This document shows positions 30,829 through 58,617 of a DNA stretch of 64,000 nucleotides, one piece after another. The position numbers and the translations under genes were made by a program. Every line of letters starts with the position of its first letter. Positions within the stretch are counted from its first letter, which is position 1. The notes under the pieces were generated by a model. It was not told the origin of the DNA. It made no database searches and was given only the letters and a program-made list of their open reading frames with translations. The stretch is from Clostridiales bacterium (GTDB lineage Bacteria; Bacillota; Clostridia; Christensenellales; UBA3700): NCBI GenBank assembly GCA_014799575.1, contig JAAVHS010000015.1:143570-207569 (forward strand), written 5' to 3'.

Positions 30829-33800
30829 TTAATATTTATCTCGGCCTTCTCCATTTTCACCAGGCGAACCACCCCATCTTTTACTAGAATCGTGAGCCCC
30901 TGAATCTCCTACAGCTCCACCGTCACCACCATATCCTTTTATACCAGTGGTATACGATGCGACATATTTTGCACCATCAGAATCATATACACTACACATC
31001 GAATTTTCTCTAGTGAATGGAACTTTTTCTACTGCCAATCCTGATTCGCCACTTGTTCCTGCATTTCCGCCATTGCCACCATTGCCGCCGAAACCTTCTT
31101 GACCAGAAGTCTGTGTGTCTGGACCGCCTTTGCCACCAGTACCGCCATTACCTCCATTACCGCCTACGCCGCCTGCGCCGGCATCTCCATGACGGAATGC
31201 AACTGATGATCTGTTAACTATACTAACTGGTTGGTTGGCAACTACGGCTTTACCGCCATCACCGCCTTTACCGCCATTGCCACCATTGCCGCCTTTGCCG
31301 CCTGTACCGCCATTACCTGCATCATCACTATTTTTGTCGCTACTTCCAAAGCCACCACGATTAGTGGTTGCTGCACCATTGCCGCCGGTACCACCTTGTC
31401 CGCCATTGCCACCATTGCCGCCTTTGCCGCCTGCACCACCACCTGCTGAAAATGATGAAGCGTCAATAACTAATGTATTACATTCTATAGCGGCTCCACC
31501 ATCGCCGCCATTTGTACCATTAGTTCCATCTGTACCATCGCCGCCTGTTTTACCATGGGCATGGCTCAAATAGCTACCTTTATAATTTACTCCATCGTCT
31601 CCTTTTTCTCCAGGATTACCGTCAGATCCATTTGAGCCATTTCCACCTTTTCCACCACCAGCGCCAAAAAACCTTACATTATTAATTCTAAGGTTATTAC
31701 ATTTTATAGCGATACCACCTTTTCCTCCACTACTATCACTATCTTTGCCCAATATTCTCACAAGGTCTCCATTCCTTATCTCTATATCACCTTGTGAATA
31801 AATAGCAGCATTATTTGTGCTAGTTGAAGAAATTTCTCCTTCTTTCTTAAAGTTTAAAAGCGTTTTCGAATAAGAATTAATACTAATATATCCACTTATA
31901 GCTACGTTATCAAGATTAATACATAAGTCAGAAGTTCTACTTGAAACTATGATTTTGGTATTTTTCTTATTTGACAAGCCTTCTCCTGTAATTGTTACTT
32001 CCAACATATTACTTGGAATTTCTATATCACAATTATCAAATTTACTTAAACTTAAATAAGCCTGATTCGTGTTATTTTTATATTTATTCCAATAATTATA
32101 TTGATTACCATCGATAGTTCTGTTAAATCCCGTAATATCTTCACTAAGAACAAATCTTACATCTTTAGCAGTAATTTCCTGATTTTTATCAGTATTATAA
32201 TGAATGTAAATAAAGTATTCAACATGAATTTTTTCTGGTTTTACAAAACATAACATTTCCGTCAAATCAATGCTCTTGTTATTTGCATTATTATTGTAAC
32301 TATATGACTTTTTACCAATCTCTTGACCTTGATAATATAATGTTACATCTGCTTTTTCTAAGTATTGCACATTAGACATATTAACAAGAGTGGAACTACT
32401 TGTTTCACTAATGCTTGCGGATATGACTAAGCCATGATTAACTTTAATTTCATACACTTGCTCTTGATTGTCTATCCTGACTTTAATATAGAATAATTCA
32501 TCTATAACGGCAGATGTTGTAAAACCAAAATCATATAAATATACTTTTCCTTCGCTCGCTTTCGTTGTATAAATCAACTCATTACCGATTTGAGTACATT
32601 CATTTTTCCCATCAAAATTAAACCAATCTGTTCTACCAGCATGGAAAATAATTTGCACATCACCGTAGTAATATTTCGGGCTATATTCAACCATAAACGA
32701 TATTTTGCTAGATTGTTTCATAGATGTAGGCACTGCCTCTTCATTGGTTTTGGTCATCTCAAAACTATCTATACTTGTATCTTCTACAGTAAAATACGAA
32801 TACTCAGAAGTAATTCCATTGTGCGCAACTGCTAAAATCACGATCTCTGTACCGACATAATCTCCGCCTTCTCTAAGTCTATATAAAGCACTTCCATCTG
32901 GATTGCTGCTAATATAATAACCATCTTCATCTTCTTTTAAAGAACTATCATCAATGGCTTCATAGCCAGAAATGATTCTATACTTAATATTCTTATCATT
33001 AACAGCAGCTGGTGATATATTTGATAAGATACATTGTACCGTACGTCCGGCTTCAAATTTCCTGTTTTCTGCCTGATACCTAATATCAATACTTTCGACA
33101 GCAACTTTTATATGTAAATTAATAGAAGCACTAACTCCATTTATAGAACCTGATAAAGTTACTATTTCTTCCTTTTGCGGGTTAGCAATTATTCTTATCA
33201 TAATACTATTATCATCAACTTCATAAGTTAAAAAGTTCTTCGCCAAACTGTCTACTTCCCATGCATAATTCAAGTCAGTCGCAAACGCTTGAGGCTCCAA
33301 TACAAAGTTATATGTATTTCCCACATACATAGCATTAGTTGGATAATTGTTTTGCTCTCTGATTACTGCTTTCTTAACTTCAACTGGTACAACTTTAAAT
33401 ATTACCGTCCTTTCACACTTTCCTGCATAAAATACAACTTTGAATTGTTTCGATTCTCCATTGTCTTTTGTAGTTTTATTAAGTGGGAACAATTTCAATA
33501 ATAATTTTCCATTGTTCAACTGATCGTAAGATACTATTTCTTCGTGTTCCGAAATAATATACTTAATTTTAGTTTCAGTAGTATTTATCGGCAGCAAATT
33601 AATTATCAAATCACTTCTATCACTACCTAATTTACTATTTGGCGTGATATTAAATACCAAATCGCCATTTGATAATGTTTCTACATACTTACAAAAGTTC
33701 TTACTAACCTTGTCAACTTCAATTTCAATGTTATTAACTGGAATAGCTATATCATATGTTTTTATTCTCTCTAATCCGTCCTCTGTTGTTGCTTTAATTG

Positions 33801-37458: not shown

Positions 37459-40400
37459 TTAGATAACGCCTCCCAAAACTCTCTTTGCTATTTTCAATGT
37501 GTCCTGAACAAAATCCACATCCGCCTCATTGTATGGTTGCACTATCTCGTTTATAATAATCGCCGTTCCACACGATATTGCTTGTTTGTTAGTGGTTACT
37601 ATATCAATGTACAGCCTATCATTATAATTGCAACCTAATTCGGCATAGTTTAACTCTATTAATTTTTCAATATTATTCCCTGCTTGTATTATAAATTCAT
37701 TGCTTTCGTATACTATTTCTCCATTTTTATTATCTCTTCTTATAACAACTTTTGCATTTTCGGCTCTGTATCCTGCATTATTTATATTTAAAGCTATAGA
37801 TTCTTTGCCCGCTTTTAAATGTTGAACAATATTGAGTTCTATGTTTGCATAGTCTACTTGTATTTGCGTATAATCATTTGCACCATTGCCATCATTAATT
37901 AAATCTAGTTTCAAATCAATAACACTAGGGATAGATTGACATGTCCAAATTATTTTAATTAACCTTTCTTCGTTAGGTAACAATGCTTGATTCAAAACAA
38001 CATTTTGCTCCTCGTTATTGATTAGTGCTTTAAACTCATTAATATTTGTGCATCCCTTATTCTTTATGAAACAATATATTTCATTGTCTCCTAACTTAAC
38101 AAAATCTAACATAAACGCCTCATCTAAACCAAGATCAGCCTTTAATTCACAAGATTCTGATTTAATTTCTCCTATTGATATATTTTGATTCGATGAGTAC
38201 TCATAAGTTACACCTACTATTTCTATTTTTGAATCAACAACGCAGCCATTTATAGCAATATAATTATTGTTATTATCCAAATAAATTCCATTAGTCCAAG
38301 AATCTTTCTCTCTGTCAAATTGCGCTAAATATAATTCCCTACTATCGTCAGCTGCTATCGTATAGATTATTCTGCTATCAACATCTTCTATGACCGAATA
38401 ACTATCCATAAGATTCGAATCCTGAATAATAGTTTTTTCAGTATTGTTCTTAATGTCAAGCATTTTTATGCTTCTGTCTTGATAATAGAACATCACAGTT
38501 GAATTATTTACGTTACCAAATTGAGGTTCACATTGCATAGTCTGAGATACTTTCTCAACTGCTTTTAAACTGTTTTTCTTTCCATAATATATGGACAACT
38601 TATCTGTAGACTCTAAATCGTTGGCTTCATTAATTGAGACCGCTATATTTATTTCTCCTTCCATATATGTAGCATCAAACGAACTAATTGGCGAATCAGT
38701 TTCATAGATTACATAAGGCTGCATCCAATTACTGTTTATTCTCTCAGCGCAATATAACTTATTCCTACCAGTTGCACCAAATGGATTGTTGTCCGTATTG
38801 TTTAACCAAACTATTGCCATATTTTGCGAAGTCGAATTCTTTACAAATTTAGGCAACGTACTCATCGTATCCAGAGAATAGGCTTTTATTTCCTCAAATG
38901 AACCGGTTGTAGTATTAAATTGAGCAACTTTAATCTGAGATGAAGCAAAGACATCACCAATTGTAGATTCTCCATCAAACACATTCGTACTCTTGTGCCA
39001 TACTACCATTGCAACATTGTCTATTACTTTCAACTCTGGATAATAGTCTGCCTTACCGTCATCAAGAACACTTCCCATTTTATCTCCATAAGAATAAACT
39101 AATTTGGTTTTATTATAGTTATCCCGCATATCATCTTTTTCTATCCATACACTTAACTTTTCATTATTGATATATACGCTTTGAGGGCGGGCATCCATAT
39201 AAGTTCCATTATTATTGGAATTATCTGACAAGTATTTCATTTTTGCGCGTTCATTAACGACATTTTTCTCATCGACTATTTTCCAATCGATTTCATAACC
39301 CAATATGCCAACTAGAACACCGAATGATAAAAATATATCTAACCCATCTTCACCATTTAATATATTAATTAAGAAGTCAATTTCGCCCTTGCCGTATGCA
39401 CCTATACTGCATATCTGCTTGATACCTACTCCTCCGCCAATACTTCCTCTAAATTTGACGATTAATTGAAGAACATGCTGAAGTTCTCTCAATTGTTCAT
39501 AGTCATAGTCAAATTCAATAGCACCACCTAAACCATATGTCATATAGATTGGTATTGGCACTGGTCCTGCGGTAACAATATGGTACTTAGTGAAATCGAC
39601 TCCACCTTCTAGTTCTAAATTGAATCCACCAGACAATATTCCATCTTTTCCTTTAACTTCGCCAGTAAAAACCTTATCAGAAATTTCAATATAACCTACT
39701 ACATTCAAAGCTAAAGACATTTTCTTTTCTAGTTTTGGTAATGCTGCAATCATATCTTTATAATAAAATTTGTCAAAAGCTCCCCACAAAGATTTAGCCA
39801 CTGACTGTTTCTTTGCCTTAGGATTAATGTTATCTCTTCTCATTTTATAACTATTTACAAAAGAAGTGAATTTCTTTTTGTTTTCGTTTTTTCTCGCTGC
39901 AGCCTCTTCCTTGGTTTCTTTTGGTTTTTTATCTTTTTTAAAATCCAACTTAACTCCTACAACCACCTGAAAACTACCTCTAATGTTGTCGTGAATAACT
40001 TCTAGTCCCGAGCCGCTTATATTAACTTTTCCAGCATTTATAGAAAGCTTTTCTTTCAACATTTTAAATATATCTATCTCACATGATCCCAAAAAATCAG
40101 TCTCCCCTAATTGTAGTTTTAAGGAATCGGAAAGACTAATTTTTATATATTCTTCAGCCGGCAAATCTGTTAATTCTACGACCGCAACCTTGATTTTCGT
40201 TTTTCTACTTCTTAATCCGCCTTTTTCGGTTACCAAATAAATATTATCATTTGCTTGAGAAATAGTTGATCTAACAGCTGGAGCCACTCCACGAGCATCC
40301 AAATCTTTTACAGGTAAATCTAAGAAATTGCCATCAGATGATGTGGCAATCAGCGTATCGCCATTATATAAATAATATGTATCGGCGCCATTTGCTTCTA

Positions 40401-41064
40401 CAGAAATATCAATAGTATCTTCATATGCATCATCTTTATAAAACGAGTAGGACTGCTCCGCAACGTTTGCCTTTTCGCCTAGATAATCTAGAGTAACATT
40501 ATAAATATCCATGTCGTCTGTTGGATTTTTTAAATAAATAGTCTTCTCTGTCTTACCTTCTTCATTTGCATAATAAACATCATAGAATTCTACATAAGGA
40601 TTATATCCTTCTTTTTCTATTCGCAATTCGACTATTTCCTCTGTCAATTTCACAAAAATCTGTCCAGACACATCTGTAAATCGAGGAACTCCATCAATGA
40701 CTATAACAGCTCCAGAAATTGCTTTATTTGTTTTACGATCCTTTACAGTAAATGTATGCCAAATTGGAACACTCTCGTATTCTGCCATTAAATTTATGCT
40801 TTCCGATGCTTTTCTTTGCTGATCTGCTATATATTCATCCTCTGATGTATATAATTTAATCCCTGCTCGTTCCAACACTTCTTCAGGTAAAACTTCTTGC
40901 ACTTCGCTAGATGTTGCGACAGCGGTAATTTCTTTGCTCTCAGTCTTCTCATTTTGTTTAAGCAGACTAAATGAAGTAGGTATTAATGTTACGAGCATAA
41001 TAACTAATAATACTGTTGCTATTGATTTTTTCATGGTTAACATATGTGTCTCCTGCATCTCCAT
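37459..41064 (-). CDS. Large secreted/surface protein, function unknown
   Basis: 1201 aa. Signal/anchor MKKSIATVLLVIMLVTLIP, a CarboxypepD_reg-like Ig segment, and C-terminal CARDB-like segments. These assignments are tentative. Confidence 0.6.
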   Translation of the reverse strand: MEMQETHMLTMKKSIATVLLVIMLVTLIPTSFSLLKQNEKTESKEITAVATSSEVQEVLPEEVLERAGIKLYTSEDEYIADQQRKASESINLMAEYESVPIWHTFTVKDRKTNKAISGAVIVIDGVPRFTDVSGQIFVKLTEEIVELRIEKEGYNPYVEFYDVYYANEEGKTEKTIYLKNPTDDMDIYNVTLDYLGEKANVAEQSYSFYKDDAYEDTIDISVEANGADTYYLYNGDTLIATSSDGNFLDLPVKDLDARGVAPAVRSTISQANDNIYLVTEKGGLRSRKTKIKVAVVELTDLPAEEYIKISLSDSLKLQLGETDFLGSCEIDIFKMLKEKLSINAGKVNISGSGLEVIHDNIRGSFQVVVGVKLDFKKDKKPKETKEEAAARKNENKKKFTSFVNSYKMRRDNINPKAKKQSVAKSLWGAFDKFYYKDMIAALPKLEKKMSLALNVVGYIEISDKVFTGEVKGKDGILSGGFNLELEGGVDFTKYHIVTAGPVPIPIYMTYGLGGAIEFDYDYEQLRELQHVLQLIVKFRGSIGGGVGIKQICSIGAYGKGEIDFLINILNGEDGLDIFLSFGVLVGILGYEIDWKIVDEKNVVNERAKMKYLSDNSNNNGTYMDARPQSVYINNEKLSVWIEKDDMRDNYNKTKLVYSYGDKMGSVLDDGKADYYPELKVIDNVAMVVWHKSTNVFDGESTIGDVFASSQIKVAQFNTTTGSFEEIKAYSLDTMSTLPKFVKNSTSQNMAIVWLNNTDNNPFGATGRNKLYCAERINSNWMQPYVIYETDSPISSFDATYMEGEINIAVSINEANDLESTDKLSIYYGKKNSLKAVEKVSQTMQCEPQFGNVNNSTVMFYYQDRSIKMLDIKNNTEKTIIQDSNLMDSYSVIEDVDSRIIYTIAADDSRELYLAQFDREKDSWTNGIYLDNNNNYIAINGCVVDSKIEIVGVTYEYSSNQNISIGEIKSESCELKADLGLDEAFMLDFVKLGDNEIYCFIKNKGCTNINEFKALINNEEQNVVLNQALLPNEERLIKIIWTCQSIPSVIDLKLDLINDGNGANDYTQIQVDYANIELNIVQHLKAGKESIALNINNAGYRAENAKVVIRRDNKNGEIVYESNEFIIQAGNNIEKLIELNYAELGCNYNDRLYIDIVTTNKQAISCGTAIIINEIVQPYNEADVDFVQDTLKIAKRVLGGVI

Positions 41065-44467: not shown

Positions 44468-47400
44468 TTATCTTCTATTCATAGCCTTTTGCTCTTTCAA
44501 GTAATCGGCATATCTTTCGATTTGATCTTCCCTAAGGTCAATCATATCTTTTGCTGTTCCAAACGCTTGTGCATCCGCTACAATGAGTTCCGTTTCCTTG
44601 ACTTTTATCTTAGAACCGTCGCTAGTCGCATTACGGCGAATATCTTTCATATACTCATCTTCCATTTTATAAAGCGCAACAACCGTGTCTTTCTTGATCG
44701 TCAACTTCAACAATGGATTTGCCGTATTCGGTCCAAAGACTACAAAGTACGTTGACTTCTTCTCTTTGCATTTATCCTTTGAGAGAGCGTAATCTCTAAG
44801 TCCGTCAAAGTACTTCTTCTGTTCTTTACTAAGAGTTGCGTAAGCCTCATCAAGCGTAAGACGTGGAGCAACTTCCTTTTTAGGCTTTGGCGCAGCTGCC
44901 ACCTTAACTTCCTTGATTACCTGTTTTTCAACTACCTTTTCTACAGGCACTTCGACAACCTTTTCTACGACCTTCTCGACTTCGATAGGTACTTCCTTGA
45001 CGACTTCCTTCTCGACTATCTTCTCTACCGGTACTTCAACAACTTTCTCCACTACCTTTTCGACAGGAACTTCAACAACCTTCTCTACGACTTGCGGTTG
45101 ATTGTTTTGGTTGGCAGACAGCTCTAATATCTTTGCCATAAGCAATTCTTGGTTTTTCAACATCTGCTTTATTGTCTCGTCATTTTGTCCGCTTTGCGTT
45201 ACTACTTTAAGTATAGTTTCATCGCTTATGTTTGAAGAAATCGGTTGTAACTTATTAACAAGTTTTTCCAACGTTTCTTCGCTTATGTTGGCGCTTGCGA
45301 CTTCTCTTTCAGCGGGCATCTCAACAAGTTGTTGCATCAACTTCTCAACGCGCCTTTCCGTCTGCTCATTAAGTTTTCTCAATCGTTCTTCATTTTGTGC
45401 GTTCTGCTCCATCAGTTTCTGTACAAACACATCGTTGTTTGCAGTTTCCGAAGGTTTCTCGGCGAGTTGCTTCATAAGTTTCTCATTTTGGTCAATTAGC
45501 TTTTGCACCATCTCATCGTTTGTCGATGCTTGTTGCGGTAACATTTGTTGCATACCTGGGAGCATTGCCGTAACGGTCTCGGATATAAGTCCTCTCATAT
45601 CATCTGCTGTTAAGCCTTGTTGATAAGCAAAACCGCCTTGAGCTCCCGCTCCGCCTGCATTTCCGCCCATCATACCCATGAGCATCATACGCATATTTTC
45701 ATCGCGTTTTTTCTCGTCAAAATCAGCCTTATTGCGATTGTATTCGTCGAGATGATCTTCGTACTCTTCTTCCGCTTTATTGCGTCTTGACTTGGCAATC
45801 AACATCATTACAAACGATACCACTGCCATTACAATCAACACACACGCTATTGCAGTCCATATAGACATTGCCACGCCCAAGAATGCTCCTGCGTACATAC
45901 TCTCCAACTTACTTGCTTTCTTGTTGAACTTCTTTCTCTCTCCGTCATACTTTGCAGTCTTTGATAAGAATACTATAATAAGTATTATGCTTATAAAACT
46001 TGCTATCAACTGCCACAATGGTATTTCTTTGAGTTTCTCTAATATCTCTTCAAGTGAGCCGCCAAATAAGCCTCCACCCTCATTATTGTTGGGGGGATTT
46101 TCGCCGCTTTGGTCTCCGCTGTTTGGATCTTTGTTATCGTCCTCATTAGGAGCATACGTAACTTCTTCCACAACGGAATTACTTGCGTCTATCATTGCAT
46201 AGTTGCTATTGTTAAGTTTAGCGACTACTTTTGCTACTTCCACTCCGTCTGCAATTTCTGCAAGCGTAAGTTCATAGCCATCTTCGTCATAATACGTATA
46301 CGTAAACTCTATATCGCTGTTTCCTCTAACACTCAACTTAGGCAAACCGCTTTCTTCATCTGTCGTCCAATTCAACCTATTTTGCGTTATAGTTGCCTTT
46401 TCAATCTTGACGGTAACAGTGTAACTATCCGTAGTTCCGTCTTCGTCATCCCAACAGAATATTTCTTCATCTTCAAGGCTAATTCTTATGGTGTATTCGC
46501 CCGCATCGGTCAAGTTGCCATCTAGTATTTCAAACTTGACACCCGTAGGCATTTCATCTCCGCTTCTCAAGAATTCTTCGATAGTATGCGGATTTCCGTC
46601 ATAGGTAATTTTCTTGTTGGTATCGAATACAGGTTTTACAATAGATGCGCTCGATCCCGGTCGAAGTACCGTCTTTGGCTCGCCGTATATCTTGATATCG
46701 TCCTCGTAGCCATCTTTAGCGAACAACTCTTTGAAGTATGGAACGCCTGTTTCCATATCTCTAATACCATTTGCAAGAATATTGCCATCGCTGTCTTTAT
46801 ATCTGTAATCTACGTAGGATTTTACCCAATCGTCCAATACTGCCGTAGCGTTGGTATTATTACCTTGCCACTCCAAGTTTATCTCATAAGCCTTTACTCT
46901 TACCAAAGTGGAAGCCGCCGGCCAAACTCCGTCTTGCCAATCTATATTGTCATAATCTAACAAATCAAATACTACTGTGTACTCGCCCGCCTTGATTGCC
47001 TTGTAAGCGTCTCCGTCAAGTCCGTCAAAAGCGCTACCGTCTTTCGTGATGGTAATCGTCATATAATTTTCCCATCCCTCTTCGGTTATGCCAAACATTT
47101 GGGCGAAATCGTGTACTTCTCCGTCAAATACCGTCCAACTCTTGTCAAATACAGGAGTCGGCAATATCTTGACTGAAATGCTCCAATTCAATCTTGTCTG
47201 CAAAGAGCTTGGCATAACTACCGTCTCATAGTTGCTACCCAAGTCAGCGAGTGCGTATTGTATTGAATAATTACCCACTTTGCTCTGTGTACGTTCACCG
47301 CTATTATAAGAGATATAATCTTTCAAGATTTCGGGTACGTTGATAAGTCCGACGGTATATGATGCTTCTCTACCGCTTGCTCTAGTATACGGCAATGCTC

Positions 47401-49978
47401 CCGTATATTCCGTTTCTTCTCCGTCTCCAATTACGTATCCCCATACGATAGCCGACGCATCTACCTTGGCTTTTGCTATGCTCCAAGAAAGCGTAGTCGG
47501 GAAGTTGGGCGCATTGTAATTCTTGGTATCGTAAGAGAACGTAATACGCGCGGTATAGTCGTTGCCCGCATTGGTTTCTTCGTGACCTATTACGCTTATG
47601 CTCAAGCCGTTTATACTGTCCTTACCGACAAGCGTCAACGTATGCGCCGTATTATCATACGTCATCGGATCAATTTCATTGTTGCTTGCATCCAACCACT
47701 TGTTTTGGTCGAAATCATATGTAGCCGCAACGTTGCCGTGTGTATACTGCCATTTGAGTCCGCTCACGTCAAAGTCGGCTTTGATTATCTCGAAATTAAA
47801 TTCCAAACATCCGCTGTCAATATAGTTATCCTCTGCTTTATCGCTATTAAGTACGACTTCTATTCTGTACTTACCCACTTCCGTAGGTTCGCCAATAATA
47901 GGACTAGTAGCTCCGTCCTTGTAGTAATGAAGCGTGATATCTTGCGCTCCTACTCCGCCATCGGCTTGAAGTATCTCTATACTAGGCGAGTATGCGCTAC
48001 CTGTGTATGACAACTGTTTGTCTTGGATATTCTCGCCATTCCATTGCAATTCCAACTTGACAACGAATTTATCCTTACCAATGACGAACGTGTATTCTGC
48101 CGTATCGCCTGTCGATAACTTATAATTCCCGCTATACGCTGTCTTGAGCGTAGCCACTACCCTATACGTGGTCTCTTCTGTTACTTCATCAGGACTCGGC
48201 AACGTGGTAACTTGTTCGCTGCCTTTATAATAAGTATAGTCTACCATGTTCGCTTGTGGAAGATTGTTAAGCGTAGGCCACGTGTATTGAGTCACGTTTC
48301 CGTTGTTGTCATTCTTCCAACTTACGCTGATTGTCGCTTGGATTATCTTCCAACTTACAGAAAATTCGAAGTCATCGCCTATATAAGAAGTCTTATCACT
48401 CGCAATAGGTACGATATAATTATTCACGTAATCTGACGTTATACTAAACGTAACGGTCGTGGTATAGTCGCCCACGGGCGTTTTACTTCTGTCGCCTGTA
48501 TACGTCGCTGTCAAACCTGCGGGCAATACGCCTTGCAATTCCATGCTTTGCGGAGATCCGTTGTATTCTAATTGTTTTACGCTAGGCCAACTCAATCCCG
48601 TCAAATTGTACTTCGCCTTATCTATGCGATAAGACAAAGTATATTGCTTGGTGTAAGTCTCGTAAGTGTTGTCTAAATTCGTTAAATGAACTGTGACTGA
48701 ATATAGCGACGTACTAGCGTTTGTTGCGCTAATATTTCCGCTATATCCGCCCGTAGTACCACTCTTGGTCGTGTCTATCTTGACGCCGTGCGAAGCAAGT
48801 ACGCTGTCGTCTATGCTAAACGTATACGGACTGCCTGTGTATACAACTGAATAATTCGTAGGATAGCCTATTGAAATACTATTGCACAACCAATCAATAT
48901 CTGTGTCTTGTAGCGTAATACCTACTCCGCTGACGTGGAATACCAACGTCTTTGGCGTAGACAACGTGTAATTGCCGTTGGCATTACTACTGCTTGCGTT
49001 AGCCTTTTCGACGTATATCGTATAGTCGCCTTTGGCAATGCCCGTCGGCATTGTTATAGTAGTTGTCTTACCGCTTACTACTTTAATGGTATTGATTTCA
49101 TCGTACTTTGTGCCTGTACCTATACTGTTATTTATATAATATATCTTTAATTCTATTGTATCATTAGTATATGAATCTTCCGTTATCGTTACGGTAGGTT
49201 GAACTCCGTAATTCCAAGTATTGTTGTTTGCATCGCAACTTATTGTGATGCCCAACGCTTTTGGATTTATTGTCACAGGCAATGAAAAACTATCCGTTCC
49301 ACCGCTCGACCACACCATTGAGCTTTTCTCGACTAGCGAAAACGTGACGTAATAAGTACCCGCGTCTTTGACTTTCAATTTACCGTCTTTCAACTCTAAT
49401 ACGCCATCTTTTAACTCTAATATATTATTGTCTTTTTTGATATTATCGATTTTAACGTCATCGCTCAATCCGTTGATGGTAAATTCTTGCAGTTCGCCGT
49501 TATACGACAAAGTATTCGACCCTATGGTCGGCTTTGTCACGGGTTTTGCGGTAATCGAAAGGTCAGGCGTTGCTTTGCAAGTACCTTTCAATTCATAGTT
49601 ATTGTTTGGGTTCATCGTCGCTGTGACGGTATACGTACCTACCGCAGTGGGATATTGGGTATATGTTTCGCCCGTTAAATTGTTTTTGTAAGTAATAGTA
49701 AACGTCGGCGCTCGATCTCCTGTATCGCTGTCGTATATCTTATTGGCGTCAGGGTCGTTGGCAACGACTATAGGCGTGACGGTATAACCTCCGCCGCTCG
49801 ACGTAGGTTTTATCTCACATTCTATAGGTTTTTTCTTGATTGTAAATGTAAATTTTCGAGTTGTAGCGTCTTCACCTTTGCTTACATCGGGGTCGCCTTT
49901 GAACGTAAATTCCGGGTCTTCTTGTAATTTCTGGTCAGAAATCTTCGCCGTCACTGTATAAGTGCCGGCGTCTTTCAT
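44468..49978 (-). CDS. MBG-repeat surface protein, distal part of the DGR target. The frame stays open upstream to 50209.
   Basis: 1836 aa as listed. Repeated AGTY(T/Y)VT...YNG MBG-type units, a TM helix (LWQLIASFISIILIIVFL plus a second helix), and a cytoplasmic tail with EKVVEVPV repeats. No signal peptide and no clear RBS at the listed ATG. Confidence 0.7.
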   Translation of the reverse strand: MKDAGTYTVTAKISDQKLQEDPEFTFKGDPDVSKGEDATTRKFTFTIKKKPIECEIKPTSSGGGYTVTPIVVANDPDANKIYDSDTGDRAPTFTITYKNNLTGETYTQYPTAVGTYTVTATMNPNNNYELKGTCKATPDLSITAKPVTKPTIGSNTLSYNGELQEFTINGLSDDVKIDNIKKDNNILELKDGVLELKDGKLKVKDAGTYYVTFSLVEKSSMVWSSGGTDSFSLPVTINPKALGITISCDANNNTWNYGVQPTVTITEDSYTNDTIELKIYYINNSIGTGTKYDEINTIKVVSGKTTTITMPTGIAKGDYTIYVEKANASSSNANGNYTLSTPKTLVFHVSGVGITLQDTDIDWLCNSISIGYPTNYSVVYTGSPYTFSIDDSVLASHGVKIDTTKSGTTGGYSGNISATNASTSLYSVTVHLTNLDNTYETYTKQYTLSYRIDKAKYNLTGLSWPSVKQLEYNGSPQSMELQGVLPAGLTATYTGDRSKTPVGDYTTTVTFSITSDYVNNYIVPIASDKTSYIGDDFEFSVSWKIIQATISVSWKNDNNGNVTQYTWPTLNNLPQANMVDYTYYKGSEQVTTLPSPDEVTEETTYRVVATLKTAYSGNYKLSTGDTAEYTFVIGKDKFVVKLELQWNGENIQDKQLSYTGSAYSPSIEILQADGGVGAQDITLHYYKDGATSPIIGEPTEVGKYRIEVVLNSDKAEDNYIDSGCLEFNFEIIKADFDVSGLKWQYTHGNVAATYDFDQNKWLDASNNEIDPMTYDNTAHTLTLVGKDSINGLSISVIGHEETNAGNDYTARITFSYDTKNYNAPNFPTTLSWSIAKAKVDASAIVWGYVIGDGEETEYTGALPYTRASGREASYTVGLINVPEILKDYISYNSGERTQSKVGNYSIQYALADLGSNYETVVMPSSLQTRLNWSISVKILPTPVFDKSWTVFDGEVHDFAQMFGITEEGWENYMTITITKDGSAFDGLDGDAYKAIKAGEYTVVFDLLDYDNIDWQDGVWPAASTLVRVKAYEINLEWQGNNTNATAVLDDWVKSYVDYRYKDSDGNILANGIRDMETGVPYFKELFAKDGYEDDIKIYGEPKTVLRPGSSASIVKPVFDTNKKITYDGNPHTIEEFLRSGDEMPTGVKFEILDGNLTDAGEYTIRISLEDEEIFCWDDEDGTTDSYTVTVKIEKATITQNRLNWTTDEESGLPKLSVRGNSDIEFTYTYYDEDGYELTLAEIADGVEVAKVVAKLNNSNYAMIDASNSVVEEVTYAPNEDDNKDPNSGDQSGENPPNNNEGGGLFGGSLEEILEKLKEIPLWQLIASFISIILIIVFLSKTAKYDGERKKFNKKASKLESMYAGAFLGVAMSIWTAIACVLIVMAVVSFVMMLIAKSRRNKAEEEYEDHLDEYNRNKADFDEKKRDENMRMMLMGMMGGNAGGAGAQGGFAYQQGLTADDMRGLISETVTAMLPGMQQMLPQQASTNDEMVQKLIDQNEKLMKQLAEKPSETANNDVFVQKLMEQNAQNEERLRKLNEQTERRVEKLMQQLVEMPAEREVASANISEETLEKLVNKLQPISSNISDETILKVVTQSGQNDETIKQMLKNQELLMAKILELSANQNNQPQVVEKVVEVPVEKVVEKVVEVPVEKIVEKEVVKEVPIEVEKVVEKVVEVPVEKVVEKQVIKEVKVAAAPKPKKEVAPRLTLDEAYATLSKEQKKYFDGLRDYALSKDKCKEKKSTYFVVFGPNTANPLLKLTIKKDTVVALYKMEDEYMKDIRRNATSDGSKIKVKETELIVADAQAFGTAKDMIDLREDQIERYADYLKEQKAMNRR
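44905..45092 (-). repeat. In-frame tandem repeat encoding (V/I)VEKVVEVPVEK units
   Basis: Protein VVEKVVEVPVEKVVEKVVEVPVEKIVEKEVVKEVPIEVEKVVEKVVEVPVEKVVEKQV. The corresponding DNA units recur with small changes. Confidence 0.7.
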
Positions 49979-50090
49979 ATCCGACGGATATGAAAGAGTT
50001 ATGACGTCATTGTTAAACCACTTTTTCTGCTCTGCCGATATATTTGCGATTGTCTGAATGTCGCCGTTATATACGGATTCTACATCCGTC

Positions 50091-50128
50091 GGGCGCTCAG
50101 CGCCCAGAGAGCCAGCGCGAGCGCTGGC
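50091..50128. promoter_or_regulatory. Two GC-rich hairpins just 3' of the VR (DGR target-recognition-like element)
   Basis: gggcgc-tca-gcgccc (50091-50105). gccagcg-cgag-cgctggc (50111-50128). Confidence 0.6.
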
Positions 50129-50149
50129 AGATTTTAGATTAAGATGAAA

Positions 50150-50207
50150 CGCGGGCCGAACCGCGGCCGGCGGCGGTAAACTAACAAGCCGAACGCAGCC
50201 ACGAATA
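50150..50207 (-). repeat. DGR variable repeat (VR), collapsed form
   Basis: 58 nt identical to 52674-52731. Flanked on its 3' side (coding sense) by TTTCATCTTAATC, where the TRs have CTTCACTC(A/G)CTTG (an IMH versus IMH*-like difference). Confidence 0.75.
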
Positions 50208-51269
50208 GCTTACGCTATTCCCGGAAACGGTTGTTGATGTAGATCTTTGATTTGTCGATGTTTTCCACAAGCCATTGGCTGTGTCAGCATATCCTACTTC
50301 TGCAAAACTAGGCAACCATAGCCTATCGTTTCCCCATGCTAAATAAGAATCTGTATTTACCGTAGTACACGTGTAATAAATACGCGGACTGTTAGCCGTC
50401 GTATACTGATACATATTCTCCGTTATCGGCGCTCCCAAACAATCATTGTTTGCGTCATAAGAATATGACGAATGTAGAGCTTGTTTCTTTGCGCTCTCTT
50501 TTTCATTATTCTTTTGATAAGGCGTATTGTTAGGTATTTCTATGAAATCTGTCAAACTTCCCTTCATTCCGGGAGTTGTATTGGGCACTGTGAATTTTGC
50601 GTAAGTACTGCTTACTTGCTGCTGAATGTTTTCCGTTGCGCTTGTATTACTTCTTGCAAAATAACCGCCGTTGTTCAATACCGCTGTCGCCATTGCGCTT
50701 GTGCCGTAAGAGTTGGACGGATAAGTATTCACGCTGTTTGTACTATTGGTAGGATTCCATGCTATATTTACCCCTGTTGCCATAGCATTGGTACTCACGT
50801 TGTAATAATTAAGTGATATTGCGTCCGCTTGCCATAAAGTCAATATCGGATCGCCATTCGCATTCTGCGATAGATACGTCGCCGTCCACGGTTTTCCGTC
50901 TATCATTACAACTACGTCAGCTCCACCATTGTTAGTGCGGAAGTCTGCCGACGTCTTTTCCGTACTTCCAAGACCTTCAAGTGTAGCCGCTGTAGGATTG
51001 GTCACTCCTGATATCTTACTGACGAGTTTCCAAAATATCTCGCCGTTGAATACGTTACCCTTGCCTGTGGTATCATCCGCATATCCATCAAGCAACATCT
51101 CAGTCGTCGTATTATCATCTGCTTTCAATGCCGTATAATTACCTTGAAAGGCATTGGCTACTTCGCTACCATTAAATAATATCCCCACACAACTAAACAC
51201 TATTGCCAATACCAATATTGACACCAACGCTGTTGTTATTCTCTTATTTCTGCTTTTTTCATTATTCAT
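50181..51269 (-). CDS. Proximal part of the DGR target: signal peptide plus a WLRS-type (C-type-lectin/DUF6273-like) domain truncated in the VR
   Basis: 362 aa. TM/signal ITTALVSILVLAIVFSCVGILF. C-terminus ..RLWLPSFAEVGYAD..SVSYSWLRSAC-stop. Confidence 0.75.
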   Translation of the reverse strand: MNNEKSRNKRITTALVSILVLAIVFSCVGILFNGSEVANAFQGNYTALKADDNTTTEMLLDGYADDTTGKGNVFNGEIFWKLVSKISGVTNPTAATLEGLGSTEKTSADFRTNNGGADVVVMIDGKPWTATYLSQNANGDPILTLWQADAISLNYYNVSTNAMATGVNIAWNPTNSTNSVNTYPSNSYGTSAMATAVLNNGGYFARSNTSATENIQQQVSSTYAKFTVPNTTPGMKGSLTDFIEIPNNTPYQKNNEKESAKKQALHSSYSYDANNDCLGAPITENMYQYTTANSPRIYYTCTTVNTDSYLAWGNDRLWLPSFAEVGYADTANGLWKTSTNQRSTSTTVSGNSVSYSWLRSAC

Positions 51270-51550
51270 ACGATTTCTTCCTTTCTTGTCTTACTCTCTA
51301 ACAACTTGTCAATTGCGACTAGTTTAATGTCACATTTACTTCGTTTTTCGACATAATGACTCAATATAGAATTTTCGATACCTATACTTAATAATCATAC
51401 GCTATTAAAAAAAATTTTGCAAGGCTTTTTATAAAATTTATGGAATATGGGCGATTATTTATGATATTTTTACTAAATATTGATATATTTTCGCTTTCCT
51501 TTTACCTTTGCTCATTTTTATCATTATTTATGTCAATAACTTAAATGCTA

Positions 51551-51579
51551 TTGACATACAATATATTATATGATATAAT
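51551..51579 (+). promoter_or_regulatory. Consensus SigA promoter for the only plus-strand gene
   Basis: TTGACA (51551-51556), 17 nt, TATAAT (51574-51579). AAGGAAA RBS precedes the ATG at 51607. Confidence 0.7.
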
Positions 51580-51606
51580 CAACTTACCGAATAAGGAAAA
51601 TTTATT

Positions 51607-52071
51607 ATGTTTGTAAAAATCACATCTGTTGCTACTCTTCCCGATTATATCCTTCTCGTAGGATTTGTGTCAGGCGAATATAAGCAATTCGACTTAAAAC
51701 CGCTTATAGAAAAATATGCGCCGTTCAAATCTTTGGTAGAAGTGGAAGGCCTTTATGAACAAGTGAAAATCGACGTAGGCGGTTATGGTCTTGTCTGGAA
51801 CGACGATCTCGATATCGCCGCAGATGGAATTTATGACAAAGGTATTTCTTGCGCTCCTCCGAGCGACATAGAAACTTACAGACAAAAACTTGTCGAAGAG
51901 TTTGTCAAAGCGCGTAAGAACGCAGGTCTTTCTCAAAAACAACTCGAAATTCTTTCGGGGATTCCCCAACCATGTATCGCTCGAACGGAAAAAGGGTTAA
52001 CAGATCCGCAACTTACAACTTTACTAAAACTACTTTCCCCATTAGGTTTGACTCTTTCAATTACAAAATAA
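51607..52071 (+). CDS. DUF2442 domain / XRE-type HTH fusion protein
   Basis: 154 aa. N-terminal pattern V..LPDYILLVGFVSGEYKQFDL..DVGGYGLVWNDDLDIAADGIY fits DUF2442. C-terminal AGLSQKQLEILSGIPQPCIARTEKG is an HTH. Confidence 0.65.
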   Translation: MFVKITSVATLPDYILLVGFVSGEYKQFDLKPLIEKYAPFKSLVEVEGLYEQVKIDVGGYGLVWNDDLDIAADGIYDKGISCAPPSDIETYRQKLVEEFVKARKNAGLSQKQLEILSGIPQPCIARTEKGLTDPQLTTLLKLLSPLGLTLSITK

Positions 52072-52081
52072 GTTTATCCCC

Positions 52082-52271
52082 GAAGTGAGCCTTGCCGCCG
52101 TAGCAATAAAAGCATTAACCGTCATTACAGGACAAGGCTCTGTTTCGTCTTTGCCACTAACATTGTCGACAAAAACAGGACAAAAGTTTCCTTCATCTCT
52201 ATCTTATCTGTCCGCTCGACCGTGATCGATACGGATACGGGAATTCCTTGCCTAATAGCAAGTGAGTGAAG
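52082..52271 (-). ncRNA. TR1-flanking conserved segment (DGR spacer-like RNA, copy A)
   Basis: Blocks shared with 52483-52673: atccgtat.gat, agcggacaga, gagatgaagg, aaacagagccttgtcct, atgacgg, ggctcac (coding sense). The complementary gagcct(t)g / c(a)aggctc segments are kept in both copies. Confidence 0.45.
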
Positions 52272-52388
52272 CGCGGGCCGAACCGCGTTGGTATTATTGA
52301 CATTATTGTTATTCATAGAAGTGCCGGCGGCGGCTAGTCTGTATGAATTGTTGTAATTGTTATAATTAGCCGAACGCAGCCACGAATA
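52272..52388 (-). repeat. DGR template repeat TR1 (full length, adenine-rich)
   Basis: Coding sense encodes YSWLRSA-NYNNYNNSYRLAAAGTSMNNNNVNNTN-AVRPA. 12 of the 27 central codons are AAY. Confidence 0.8.
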
Positions 52389-52482
52389 ATACGGCAACCA
52401 GATACAAAAACTTCTACCCTGCGCCCATTATAGCATATCACTTACTGAAATATCAACTTTTTCTATAACATAAAGTAAAAAT

Positions 52483-52673
52483 GTGAGCCTCGCCATTTTT
52501 ACGCTAAAAGCAGTCATTGTTTTCCACCGTCATCGTAGGACAAGGCTCTGTTTTGTCTCTCCCGCCTTTGCGGTCAAGACTAGACGAAATCCCCTTCATC
52601 TCATATCTTCTGTCCGCTTGACCTTAATCAATACGGATGCTGGAAATACTTATCTTTTGACAAGCGAGTGAAG
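52483..52673 (-). ncRNA. TR2-flanking conserved segment (DGR spacer-like RNA, copy B)
   Basis: Homologous in blocks to 52082-52271. Directly follows TR2. Confidence 0.45.
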
Positions 52674-52731
52674 CGCGGGCCGAACCGCGGCCGGCGGCGG
52701 TAAACTAACAAGCCGAACGCAGCCACGAATA
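52674..52731 (-). repeat. DGR template repeat TR2 (deletion derivative, identical to the VR)
   Basis: Equals TR1 with a clean 35-nt deletion and 34 nt replaced by 10 nt. Carries the TR-type 3' flank CTTCACTCGCTTG. Confidence 0.7.
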
Positions 52732-52822
52732 CATACAAACCTCAAACAAAAGATTTCGCCGTGTGTATTATATTGTATATAATAATTTACTATCACTTCA
52801 ATAGATATAGTAATTTCTATGT

Positions 52823-54466
52823 CTACTGTCTGGCTTTTGATTTCATCCAACCGCTCAACATCTTCTTGACTTCGCAAACTTGCTTACCTATAAGCATGGC
52901 TTGTTTGTTTGTAATGGCCTGCTTAACCTTTGCGGTCTCAGCATAAAAGTCCAATAGACACAAGTTGACCATTGCTTGCTTTTGGTACTCGCTACGCTTT
53001 TCATCTCTTTCAAAATTTGCGTAGTACAAACTCTCTATGACTGACGTCGATGCGTCCATAAGCCTTGATACAATACTCCATCTCAATGTCTTTGGCGACT
53101 TTTCCGTGATAACAAAAATATACTCGCTCAATTTCTTTGCGCCTGTAAACACTTGCATTTCTCTGTCTTTGGGTTGATTGAAGTCAGTTATCTTAAAAGG
53201 CTTTTTCTCCCCTTCTTGCGTTTGGTTTTCAATTGTGTTTTCTTTGGTTTCTCCCAAAAGTTCATTCTTTATTTCTTGGTCTATGTCGTTCATCATCTCT
53301 TTCAAATACTCCTTTTGTCCTTCATACGTAGATAATTTTTTCTCTTCGGCAAATGCTTTTTCTTTCTCTTCGATCGGCTCTAATTTCCGCTCGATTTCTT
53401 TTGCAAACTTTATACTCTTTGCGTGTTTCAAATGACCGTGAAATGCTGCGCACGTTTGCCTTATTCGTTCAATATTTATCAGTCCCTCATAGTATCCTTT
53501 CTTTATTAGTTTCACTCGCCATCGGAATCTTCGCTTGGTTTGCTTCTTTATCGTCTTGACTATTTCCCCTTCAGGTGTAACAACAAATCTGTACCCAAGA
53601 TAAGTCACTCCGTTCTTTATCGGAAATATCTGTGTCTTGGAATTTAATTTCAAGCCTAGCCGCTTTACCAAATCTTCTATCCGTTCTTTGACGTACTTTA
53701 TGTATTCAAGGTTTTCGTGCATAAGTACGAAGTCATCCATATACCTTGAATATACCTTTATTCTCAACTGCTCTTTTATTAATCTATCCACGGGGTCAAG
53801 ATAAAACATTCCAAAAATTTGACTTGTCTGATTTCCAATCGGTATACCCCTTCCCGTCTCTTCGCCTTTGCCTAATGGCTCTATACCGTACTTAGTCAGA
53901 TAATCGGGACTTGTGCTGTATCCGTCAATTACGCCTTCTATCATCTTTCGTATGCGCTCGTCCACTATGCGAGTACAAACTACCGACTTTAACTTGTCAT
54001 GCGGTATGCTTGCAAAAAATTTGAGTACGTCGCACTTGAGAAAATACCCATTGACTCCATTCTTATCTATGTGTCTACGCAACATTTTTTCAAATCTATC
54101 CAATGCAAAATGACTGCCTTTGCCCTTTTGGCAAACACAATTATCATAAATTACCCTATTTGCAAAATATGGCATAAGCATATTATCGCATAAGACGTGC
54201 TGTATCACTCTGTCGCAATACCGCATATTTTGAATCTCTCGACGCTTGGGCTCAAATACTAAAAAGGTGTTATAGCCACCAAACTTAAATGTACCGTTTA
54301 TTAATTTCTTATGTAATTCGTAAATATTTCCTAATGCGGAAATTTCAAATTTTACTATGGGTTTCTTACTTCTACGAGAAGCCCTGCTCTTCAAGTGAGC
54401 TGCATAAAGATTTTCTATACTGAACAACTCTTCGTAAGTGTTCGTTATCAATTTATTTGTTTTCAA
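52823..54466 (-). CDS. DGR reverse transcriptase with C-terminal Avd-like domain
   Basis: 547 aa, TTG start with GGAG 5 nt upstream. RT motifs FEPKRREI, CQKGKGSHFA, GIPIGNQTSQ (the DGR-specific (I/L)GxxxSQ) and SRYMDDFVLM. C-terminal ~115 aa: SPKTLRWSIVSRL..ESLYYAN..EVKKMLSGWMKS, resembling the Avd four-helix bundle. Confidence 0.85.
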   Translation of the reverse strand: MKTNKLITNTYEELFSIENLYAAHLKSRASRRSKKPIVKFEISALGNIYELHKKLINGTFKFGGYNTFLVFEPKRREIQNMRYCDRVIQHVLCDNMLMPYFANRVIYDNCVCQKGKGSHFALDRFEKMLRRHIDKNGVNGYFLKCDVLKFFASIPHDKLKSVVCTRIVDERIRKMIEGVIDGYSTSPDYLTKYGIEPLGKGEETGRGIPIGNQTSQIFGMFYLDPVDRLIKEQLRIKVYSRYMDDFVLMHENLEYIKYVKERIEDLVKRLGLKLNSKTQIFPIKNGVTYLGYRFVVTPEGEIVKTIKKQTKRRFRWRVKLIKKGYYEGLINIERIRQTCAAFHGHLKHAKSIKFAKEIERKLEPIEEKEKAFAEEKKLSTYEGQKEYLKEMMNDIDQEIKNELLGETKENTIENQTQEGEKKPFKITDFNQPKDREMQVFTGAKKLSEYIFVITEKSPKTLRWSIVSRLMDASTSVIESLYYANFERDEKRSEYQKQAMVNLCLLDFYAETAKVKQAITNKQAMLIGKQVCEVKKMLSGWMKSKARQ

Positions 54467-54529
54467 GCAGCTCCGCCTATCTCTTCCGTGTATTCTTGAG
54501 ATATAGCAATGCCTTTCTCAATGCTACTG

Positions 54530-54559
54530 ATTTTATCAAATAATCTAAGTGATTGTCAA
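54530..54559 (-). promoter_or_regulatory. Candidate promoter of the RT gene
   Basis: Minus strand TTGACA, 18 nt, TAAAAT, ~60 nt upstream of the RT start. Confidence 0.5.
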
Positions 54560-54668
54560 TCAGTTACTATATTCTCTTTTTGGTAAATATTCCTATATCA
54601 TCTTTTATGATATATTTTTCATTCCATTGGGGATGGTGTTTCCTTTTTCCCTTTCGATGTTTCTAACT

Positions 54669-57315: not shown

Positions 57316-58617
57316 TTAACTAAAAACTCTATTAACAACACTCCTGCCCTGTTGTCTTATATCGTCTGTCACATGCTCATAAACTTCAAACGTAGTGCTC
57401 AATTTTGAGTGTCCTAATCTGCATTGGATATACTTCTGCGTAGCGCCACTTTCTGCAAGAATACTTGCATGCGTATGTCTCAATGAATGATAATCAAATT
57501 CTTCGCAAATATCTTTCTTTATTATCTTTGTCGCATGTTGCATAGTTCTTGGACTAATAAAAGTACCGTCCTCTCTTATACAAACAAAATGAATAAGATA
57601 ATCTGTTTCTTGAGTTCGAATTCTATTTTGAATATCATTGTACATATTAAATTTATTATCAAATACTAAAGGTCTATCAGAATAATAGTTGTGATAATAT
57701 ATCCCATAATACGCTTTTGCTATCTCTTGTCTTTTCTTTTCTACCGACAGTATTTTAGCTAATCCATCACTAATCTCTATGGCGCGATAAGAATTATATT
57801 TTGGCGCTGAAAAATACCAATAACCATTGCCACATTCTGATGAGCCGTTGTTAGCAATTTTGTCATATATTGTTCTTTCTTTATCTTGATACCATTGAAC
57901 TTGTCTGTTTATATAAATAACCTTGTTGACTAAATCTATATCTTCCCAACACAGTCCAAAAGTTTCCCCCAAACGTAAACCGCACTCATAGCCAAGTTTT
58001 AAAGGAATATAGCTCGAGCTTCTTTCTGTAAAGCGTTCAAATATTTTTTGCATTACTTCACCTTTAATAAAATGATGCGGAGCCGAACGTGTTGGCACTT
58101 GGGGCACTCTATTCTTAGGTATTTTCAATCTAACTGCCGGAGTGCAAACTATGTAGTGATTGTCCATTGCATAATTCATACTTTTAGTAAGCATTCCTTT
58201 AAATGAAACTAGCGAATTTCTAGAATAACCGAAGTCATACATCTCGACTAAAAAGGCTTGCAGTACTTCTCTCGTTAAAGATCTTAGCCTATACGAACCC
58301 AATTTAGGCTTGAATACGTTGTCTATAACTTTCTTATAGTGCGTCAACGTCGTTTCTTTCAAGTCAACCATACAATCTTTTTCGAACCAAATATCAAAAA
58401 AATCCGCTACTGAAATCTGATCCTTTGCAATATGTCCATAGTTCTCGTACTGTCTCATCGCTTCCCTTCCTGCTTTTCGCGCTTCAGTAACAGTTTTAAA
58501 TCCGCTCTTTGATTTCCATTTTCTTTTGCCATCAATACTCGCAATCTCAAAGCGGTATTCATACACTGCGCCATTTGTTGAAAAACGTTTTCTGATACAT
58601 AAATTAATCATATACAA
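57316..58617 (-). CDS. Tyrosine recombinase / integrase
   Basis: 433 aa. N-terminal arm-binding-like segment, then HSLRHTHAS (HxxR) and LGHSKLSTTFEVYEHV (catalytic Tyr). Confidence 0.85.
   Translation of the reverse strand: MYMINLCIRKRFSTNGAVYEYRFEIASIDGKRKWKSKSGFKTVTEARKAGREAMRQYENYGHIAKDQISVADFFDIWFEKDCMVDLKETTLTHYKKVIDNVFKPKLGSYRLRSLTREVLQAFLVEMYDFGYSRNSLVSFKGMLTKSMNYAMDNHYIVCTPAVRLKIPKNRVPQVPTRSAPHHFIKGEVMQKIFERFTERSSSYIPLKLGYECGLRLGETFGLCWEDIDLVNKVIYINRQVQWYQDKERTIYDKIANNGSSECGNGYWYFSAPKYNSYRAIEISDGLAKILSVEKKRQEIAKAYYGIYYHNYYSDRPLVFDNKFNMYNDIQNRIRTQETDYLIHFVCIREDGTFISPRTMQHATKIIKKDICEEFDYHSLRHTHASILAESGATQKYIQCRLGHSKLSTTFEVYEHVTDDIRQQGRSVVNRVFS

Follow-up and report, generated by a model that had tools for sequence, protein, structure and literature searches.

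The diversity-generating retroelement (DGR) described here lies in a 64,000-nucleotide (nt) stretch of DNA from a Clostridiales bacterium (assembly GCA_014799575.1, contig JAAVHS010000015.1, forward-strand positions 143,570 to 207,569), which we call the window and whose first letter is position 1. The variable region (VR) of a giant surface-protein gene in this window is identical, over all of its 58 nt, to the shorter of two template repeats (TRs) that stand next to the reverse transcriptase (RT) gene. This short template, TR2, contains an in-frame stop codon and almost no adenine; the longer one, TR1, is rich in adenine. An earlier reading of the same DNA by sequence alone, called the original prediction below, had taken the VR for a copy of a crippled, non-diversifying TR2, and this is now supported by VRs in three lineages that copy their own short TR and by the invariance of a short TR among strains. 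We therefore regard it as highly probable, from sequence comparison, that TR2 was copied into the VR. The present VR is predicted to knock out the target protein, which goes from 2,286 to 362 amino acids (aa). All parts of the DGR in the window are carried by the minus strand, namely the gene for the RT fused to an Avd-like domain (RT-Avd), both template modules, the VR and the open reading frames (ORFs) of the target. The window sequence is also found in ENA as part of metagenome contig ERZ27267574 (MEGAHIT k119_95342, 129 kb). The main features are as follows.

50150-50207, minus strand: VR in its OFF state, an exact copy of TR2 (58/58), 59 nt shorter than TR1 and interrupted by an in-frame TAG at 50181-50183
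50181-51269, minus strand: present form of the target gene, which encodes only the N-terminal 362 aa, with a signal/transmembrane (TM) segment and an incomplete DUF6273 domain
44468-50149, minus strand: distal target ORF of 1,893 codons, now in a different frame from the N-terminal part; it encodes repeats, two TM segments and a coiled-coil tail
50073-50128, minus strand: three GC-rich hairpins directly 3' of the VR (50111-50128, 50091-50105 and 50073-50089)
52674-52731, minus strand: TR2, short null template of 58 nt with 3 adenines, reading WLRSAC-TAG in the target frame
52272-52388, minus strand: TR1, adenine-rich diversifying template of 117 nt with 35 adenines and 12 in-frame AAY codons

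Two templates and the interrupted target gene

The original prediction had placed two homologous modules at 52483-52731 (module B, with TR2) and 52082-52388 (module A, with TR1), and these coordinates, the motifs shared by the module ends and the composition of the two TRs (117 nt with 12 AAY codons; 58 nt with 3 adenines and 58/58 identity to the VR) were all borne out. The left motif TATTCGTGGCTGCGTTCGGC (20 nt) occurs exactly three times in the window, at 52712-52731, 52369-52388 and 50188-50207, and the right motif GCGGTTCGGCCCGCG (15 nt) also exactly three times, at 52674-52688, 52272-52286 and 50150-50164; there is thus one copy of each in module B, in module A and in the VR, and relaxed matching of both motifs over the window gave no extra copies. 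Directly 3' of both TRs stands CTTCACTC, followed by a homologous flank (81% identity over 81 nt and 84% over 38 nt; about 71% overall between the modules). This flank is absent after the VR, as had been claimed: the right motif GCGGTTCGGCCCGCG is common to the VR and the TRs, whereas 3' of the VR we find TTTCATCTTAATC and coding sequence. The VR flank consists of TTTCATC and hairpins. The hairpin region has a DNA folding energy of -26.8 kcal/mol (z = -4.6), and hairpin 2 shows a compensatory change in a relative, locus L109 (GGGGGC/GCCCCC vs GGGCGC/GCGCCC). With its GC-rich stretch and hairpins, and with its difference from the TR flank, this region resembles the target-recognition element expected in a DGR, and we consider it a putative element of this kind. 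In the DGR of Bordetella phage BPP-1 a hairpin 3' of the VR is reportedly needed for target recognition.

The original prediction overlooked both the in-frame TAG and the frame shift in the 58-nt VR. Because of this TAG and the 59-nt shift the target protein would be cut to 362 aa. When the VR is exchanged for TR1 in silico, one uninterrupted ORF of 2,286 codons is obtained (51269 to 44468), which joins the 362-aa ORF to an 1836-aa ORF located within the distal part (49978-44468). The restored protein starts with an N-terminal signal/TM segment, after which come the variable domain, a repeat region of about 1,400 residues, two TM segments and a coiled-coil tail. It matches Pfam DUF6273 with 34.7 bits over residues 314-397, the end of the match being the end of the VR; the truncated 362-aa protein has no Pfam match. 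Relatives were collected by a search with the RT protein and their contigs fetched, the close ones all from ENA, NCBI and Logan; their loci carry numbers beginning with L. Comparison of the distal ORF between the window and L020, both OFF with different null alleles, gave a ratio of non-synonymous to synonymous substitution rates (dN/dS) of 0.06 over 1,431 codons, with 66 synonymous and 14 non-synonymous codon differences and zero stops. By this low ratio the distal ORF is under purifying selection, and the gene is thus kept. Its upkeep fits a recent or reversible inactivation, or a separate expression of the distal part.

Variable repeats and null templates in related strains

The window is not the only case of a VR that equals a short TR. 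L103 has the same 58-nt OFF VR with a VR-type 3' flank, its 3' junction being seen up to the contig end. The VR of L020 is identical (67/67) to its own 67-nt short TR and again has the VR-type 3' flank. In L109 and L110 a mid-contig VR is identical (61/61) to the short TR of the metagenome-assembled genome (MAG) that contains L022; L109 comes from this same MAG and L110 is an independent SPAdes assembly. Swapping the long TR of the MAG into this VR restores an ORF of 2,237 aa. In the lineage P0002 the VR of L013 starts as an exact copy of the 62-nt short TR and the contig ends 56 nt into the repeat, which is where a k=55 graph would be expected to end if the repeat is real. OFF VRs that copy their own lineage-specific short TR are thus found in three species-level lineages. 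The P0002 short TR is identical in 10 assemblies while all their VRs differ, which argues for a flow of information from TR2 to VR; the opposite flow was rejected, since TR2 is invariant and the VRs vary.

TR1 is used as well. Eight P0002 VRs derive from TR1, seven of them full-length and one (L010) without 1 nt, and against TR1 they are changed at 116/272 adenine positions (43%) and at about 1% of the other positions. VR changes focused in this way on adenines indicate that the DGR is active in the P0002 lineage with TR1 as its template. The VRs of L104/L105 also differ from TR1 at adenines; the adenine differences between TR and VR that characterize a DGR are therefore found in L104/L105 and P0002, and the VR of the window itself is a TR2 copy. 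Sample ERZ27276792 has TR1 and TR2 identical to those of the window, yet its VR is TR1-derived and adenine-mutagenised (and frameshifted through a 1-nt deletion). As the templates are the same and the source of the VR is different, both templates are, on this comparison, used in one genetic background. Among P0002 loci, in which the RT protein is identical, we counted seven intact ON alleles, one OFF and one with an indel; here the pair of an intact ON and a TR2-type OFF allele in a single strain background rests on the contig-end case of L013.

The null template recurs in more distant relatives. In the P0002 lineage (RT 78% identical; L009-L018 and L023) the short TR precedes the long one as in the window, the short TR having 62 nt and reading WLRSAL-TAG and the adenine-rich one 117 nt. 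L022 (RT 81% identical) has a short TR of 61 nt that reads WLRSAV-TAG, and within the lineage of the window the short TR measures 58 nt (window, L006 and L107), 64 nt (L106) or 67 nt (L020). Defective templates with TAG at the same codon are found in L030 (RT 50% identical), where the TR is adenine-poor with a 1-nt deficit, and in L093 (RT 52% identical), where it has a 2-nt deficit, four TAGs and only 7 adenines; in L025 the TAG of the short TR stands three codons further on. The TAG is codon 7 from the W of WLRS in all five lineages, while the codon before it varies by lineage (TGT, TTG, GTT, TCC, TGC). The length deficits of the null TRs are 59, 53, 50, 55, 56, 1 and 2 nt, none of them divisible by 3. 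A survey of template modules in related elements, which had been suggested with the original prediction, thus showed the pair to be conserved, besides arrays of 2-11 TRs that are described below. The TAG is unreachable from the matching TR1 codon through adenine changes alone. This bears on the earlier proposal that TR2 is of cDNA-derived origin: the proposal is plausible for TTGTTA and GTTTAC when compared with TAATTA..AATTAC, but the TAG needs a non-adenine change.

Searches of other collections returned only distant or no relatives. A blastn search of a phage database with window positions 49900-54600 gave no match, a search of IMG/VR by RT found only relatives of 23-37% identity, and the exact VR 3' junction was absent from JGI metagenomes and IMG/VR in an exact scan.

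Template modules, reverse transcriptase and arrays

The following features complete the element.

52483-52688, minus strand: structured RNA 3' of TR2, core 52573-52688 including the GC-rich right motif (nhmmer, 106.6 bits)
52082-52286, minus strand: structured RNA 3' of TR1, core 52170-52286 (nhmmer, 110.2 bits)
52767-52796, minus strand: promoter-like site about 36 nt upstream of TR2, GTGATA-18-TATAAT, 10/12 matches
52427-52456, minus strand: promoter-like site about 39 nt upstream of TR1, TTGATA-18-TATAAT with a TG extension, 11/12 matches
54530-54559, minus strand: promoter-like site 5' of the RT gene, TTGACA-18-TAAAAT with a TG extension, 11/12, a consensus match only
52823-54466, minus strand: RT with a C-terminal Avd-like domain (RT-Avd fusion, 547 aa), from Pfam, PHROG and motif matches
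51607-52071, plus strand: DUF2442-HTH gene between the TR modules and the target gene

A profile of the element of about 115 nt that follows the TRs detected 1-7 copies per locus in about 55 of 80 species-level loci. The 72 copies that were aligned share a consensus fold of 21 pairs, and compensatory changes are seen at 17 of these. In this alignment 90.6% of the cells are paired, against 36-46% in controls with slid partners. The controls do not exceed a covariation score of 0.156, compared with 0.494 for the real pairs, a value that 0/500 shuffles reach. Alignment and folding with homologues had been proposed as a check of the modules, and both the TR2-side and the TR1-side element keep 20 of the 21 consensus pairs. 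An Rfam scan of window positions 49900-53000 gave no match at E-values up to 1. The post-TR element is therefore a candidate new RNA family and a candidate template RNA domain of the DGRs of this clade; presumably it is used by the RT-Avd protein to start cDNA synthesis. As a promoter-like site, a TR and a structured RNA are found in each, the module looks like an autonomous unit. TATAAT-like boxes likewise occur about 40 nt upstream of the TRs in other arrays.

The RT-Avd protein matches Pfam RVT_1 (E=4.9e-18) and PHROG 1423, a family of RTs (E=1.3e-103). Its residues 444-543 match Pfam bAvd with E=6.4e-9 and 36.7 bits, slightly below the 40-bit cut-off, and residues 434-546 match the PHROG 'Avd protein of DGR' with E=1.1e-12. 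The DGR motif (I/V/L)GxxxSQ is present as IGNQTSQ at RT residues 210-216 and is invariant in the RT alignment. Avd is here fused to the RT, with no separate gene. On the minus strand RT-Avd is followed by module B (52731-52483) and then by module A (52388-52082).

We made a rough automated census of TRs and VRs in the window and 80 species-level loci, the latter taken from a scan of one genome per species; its counts are approximate and include some false or mis-registered units (for example L037, L055, L067 and stray matches in L045/L051/L079). A recognisable TR was found in 67 of the 81 loci, at least two TRs in 29 and at least three in 19, with a maximum of 11. The original prediction knew of no duplicated TR plus spacer arrangement; the duplication is real and it is not unique, given the 29/81 loci of this RT clade with at least two TRs. 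Null TRs were flagged in 7 loci, L037 being doubtful among them, and 14 loci have a full-length TR with an in-frame stop, mostly TAA. Adenine-poor full-length TRs that resemble stored VR alleles occur in 7 loci. In loci that have an array as well as a VR, one particular TR is usually the source of the VR, which differs from it by changes of A to any base (A-to-N; L044, L045, L076, L085, L086 and L098).

Examples of tandem TR arrays beside the RT, taken from loci L022-L101, are L045:9711-10623, L046:5602-7662, L051:9692-12053, L076:9715-11039 and L085:9720-13748, and arrays on the strand opposite to the RT gene were seen in L025, L032, L034 and L093, with L035 having one TR per strand. Full-length in-frame array members with 4-14% A are found at L053:3463-3944, L061:10406-10513 and L076:9715-10228 and 10731-10838, and in L051 and L085; such adenine-poor members suggest some flow of information from VR to array, or archived variants. 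Adenine-rich TRs with one in-frame TAA occur at L060:9679-9786 and L063:6300-6407 and 7787-7894, and in L069, L079, L068, L084, L059 and L065. Unmutated homing from a TR with TAA would therefore yield an OFF allele. At the TR stop sites the VR is mostly sense (TTA, ATA, TAT or TTT); the VR of L063 keeps TAA and that of L068 has TAG and an indel.

The small cargo between the TR modules and the target differs by strain, being DUF2442-HTH, DUF4160 plus DUF2442-HTH, RelB/ParE or a GIY-YIG gene; the gap coordinates are 51607-52071 (plus strand) in the window, L006:9393-10131, L106:8535-9163 and L009:9885-10169, and the gap of L020 is empty. Upstream of the DGR are an integrase gene (57316-58617) and a Fic gene. 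The minus strand of the window has further very large ORFs of 1,201-1,935 aa (912-6719, 19994-24955, 30829-35790 and 37459-41064). Kinship between the two 1,653-aa ORFs of the window was considered and rejected, as they are unrelated to each other.

Proposed switch, its rivals and its meaning

How could a template that destroys its own target be of use? The reading that we favour, and hold to be somewhat better than an even bet, is that the null template TR2 switches the target off by retrohoming and that TR1 could switch it on again in a new form. The DGR would have two separately transcribed template modules. TR1 would be an ordinary mutagenic template and TR2 a null template, being short, near adenine-free, with an in-frame TAG and a frame-shifting length. 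A cDNA of TR2 would have replaced the VR, with tract ends like those of TR1-derived tracts (20-23 nt of 5' homology and the GC-rich 3' element), and this replacement would shorten the surface protein from 2,286 to 362 aa (OFF). In the OFF allele the 5' homology is retained, as are the GC-rich element and the hairpins that follow the VR, so that the ORF could be rebuilt later from a TR1 cDNA, in a fresh variant (ON). In this way the DGR would perform phase variation besides diversification. The dependence of TR2 transfer on the RT, its reversibility and its adaptive value are inferred, and we hold them with less confidence than the copying of TR2 into the VR. A wider version, which we put forward tentatively, is that the templates of the clade are programmable libraries made of adenine-rich diversifiers, adenine-poor full-length archived alleles and a conserved null with TAG and frameshift. 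If so, the choice of the module to be transcribed would decide whether the target is turned off, a stored variant restored or new variants made, and the clade would possess an RNA-templated system for combined phase and antigenic variation.

Several observations weigh against a selected switch. A reversal from OFF to ON is not documented among the loci compared, and the database searched gave no intact ON allele from the lineage of the window: the sole whole TR1-derived VR of this lineage (L104/L105) has a 1-nt deletion, and that of L106 starts TR1-like and is cut by the contig end. VRs with 1-nt deletions break the target ORF without TR2 (L010:11988-12103, L104:1896-2011 and L031:12576-12685), which suggests indel errors in homing or a frequent, tolerated loss of the protein; it may simply be that loss of the gene is an advantage or is tolerated. 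A number of assemblies share their study of origin and are possibly re-assemblies of the same samples. Finally, identities of the spacers separate only weakly across lineages (70-72% for short-short pairs vs 63-68% for short-long pairs), so that this matrix is only weakly informative as proof of the orthology of short modules, and the shared ancestry of null modules rests mainly on the position of the TAG.

The rival that survives best, rather unlikely in our view, is that TR2 arose as a duplicate of the template module, has decayed and can still home; its occasional copying into the VR would then be a harmful or neutral by-product and not a selected switch. TR2 does resemble a deleted, A-to-N mutated derivative of TR1, the TR arrays of relatives contain many odd copies, and the absence of an intact ON allele from the window lineage and the other VRs broken by 1-nt deletions (L010, L104/L105, L031) would also suit this view. 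The null module, however, has persisted across RT identities of 50-81%, with an intact RNA structure that shows compensatory changes, a TAG at the same codon and a promoter-like site. Moreover, the combination of stop and frameshift makes the knock-out robust to adenine mutagenesis, L093 even having four TAGs, and the distal ORF is under strong purifying selection in OFF strains.

The VR could also have gained the TR2 sequence by DNA recombination (gene conversion) independent of the RT. DNA-level copying is error-free, and OFF VRs have zero changed adenines, with 3, 6 and about 5 adenines in the three alleles. In TR1-derived VRs, however, the rate of change at isolated adenines is only about 17%, and adenines beside the ends hardly ever change. 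Since the short TRs have 2-4 internal isolated adenines, error-free copies are fairly often expected, and as an argument against retrohoming the unmutated OFF adenines were therefore discarded as not significant; they do keep gene conversion alive as a minor rival. The flanking homology of just 20-23 nt and 15-16 nt would be a poor RecA substrate, the tract ends match those of mutagenised TR1-derived tracts (the A of GTATTCC is mutated in L010 and L012) and TR2 bears the full RNA element expected of a template for reverse transcription. We thus consider gene conversion improbable.

An origin of the TR2-type VR, or of the second module, as an error of assembly is hardly credible. Contigs do often break at these repeats (L007, L008, L013, L021), and the L102 scaffold (1445-1554) joins the VR left flank and the 58-nt core to the TR2 3' flank. 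L102 is, however, the same locus as L103, and its odd join is an assembly ambiguity caused by the exact 58-nt repeat. MEGAHIT and SPAdes assemblies of different samples show the complete VR junctions, with unique sequence to the left and right, in the window, L020, L109 and L110 (and the 3' junction in L103), and the module flanks differ by about 29%. A de Bruijn mis-join cannot explain the VR, as the 3' stretch common to TR2 and a TR1-type VR is just 16 nt long, less than any usual k. Two readings that had been named as refuting the original prediction were rejected as well. A duplication of the module by assembly does not fit flanks of about 71% identity and a pair present in >15 assemblies from different assemblers, and a second, decayed target gene as the source of module B does not fit its TR-type flank, its 20/21 RNA pairs and a 5' homology of only 20 nt.

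Compared with canonical DGRs (Bordetella phage BPP-1 with mtd/avd/TR/brt; Legionella, Treponema, Bacteroides), the element is alike in its IGxxxSQ-type RT and Avd-like domain, in a VR that closes a lectin-like domain and acquires adenine-specific changes when a TR is copied into it, and in the GC-rich 3' element and hairpin of the VR and the structured RNA 3' of the TR. In BPP-1 the structured RNA 3' of the TR is the spacer. The element is unlike them in the fusion of RT and Avd, in having at least two TR modules per VR, each with its own promoter-like site and RNA element, in one template being short, adenine-poor and stop-bearing, and in a VR located near the N-terminus of a 2,286-aa protein and not at the C-terminus. 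Normal TRs are built from AAY codons, which cannot yield stops (10.1101/2024.11.15.621889), and a recent Bacteroides study states that AAC codons can never do so. More than one TR per RT has been mentioned in passing for the DGR of Stenotrophomonas sp. SKA14, where two TRs go with several VRs in different genes (PMC6642488), and for that of the zeta crAss-like phage Lera, with several TRs (PMC12386605). In neither case is a null, adenine-poor or stop-bearing TR described, or a VR identical to one, and in the searchable (non-subscription) literature we found no description of null or stop-bearing templates, TR arrays or ON/OFF switching by a DGR.

The system may also share traits with phase variation by slipped-strand repeats or invertible promoters: a surface gene appears to be ON or OFF among near-identical strains, and when OFF it has a frameshift or stop, the remaining gene being intact and selected. 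Unlike slippage or recombinase switches, the one proposed here would have its OFF state written from a dedicated null template by reverse transcription, and the return to ON would also give a new protein variant. Antigenic variation by gene conversion from silent cassettes is the mode of Neisseria pilS/pilE and Borrelia vls. The arrays of 2-11 non-expressed donors for one expression site in our relatives are alike to these, as is the derivation of the VR from one particular donor; the donors here, however, are apparently RNA templates with promoters and an RT, adenines are mutagenised and the scheme does not call for a RecA-type mechanism.

A VR identical to a null TR has zero A-to-N mismatches, so that detection of TR/VR pairs by mismatches would overlook it. 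Split or truncated genes for giant surface proteins near DGRs in MAGs of gut Clostridia may not be pseudogenes but genes in an OFF state. Arrays in which each template has a promoter-like site of its own could also serve as models for multiplexed editing tools based on DGRs. The prevailing view of DGRs is that of pure diversifiers, with templates built to avoid stop codons. If our hypothesis were correct, the DGR machinery would also serve a programmed, potentially reversible inactivation of genes, and the choice of template would be an unrecognised layer of DGR biology.

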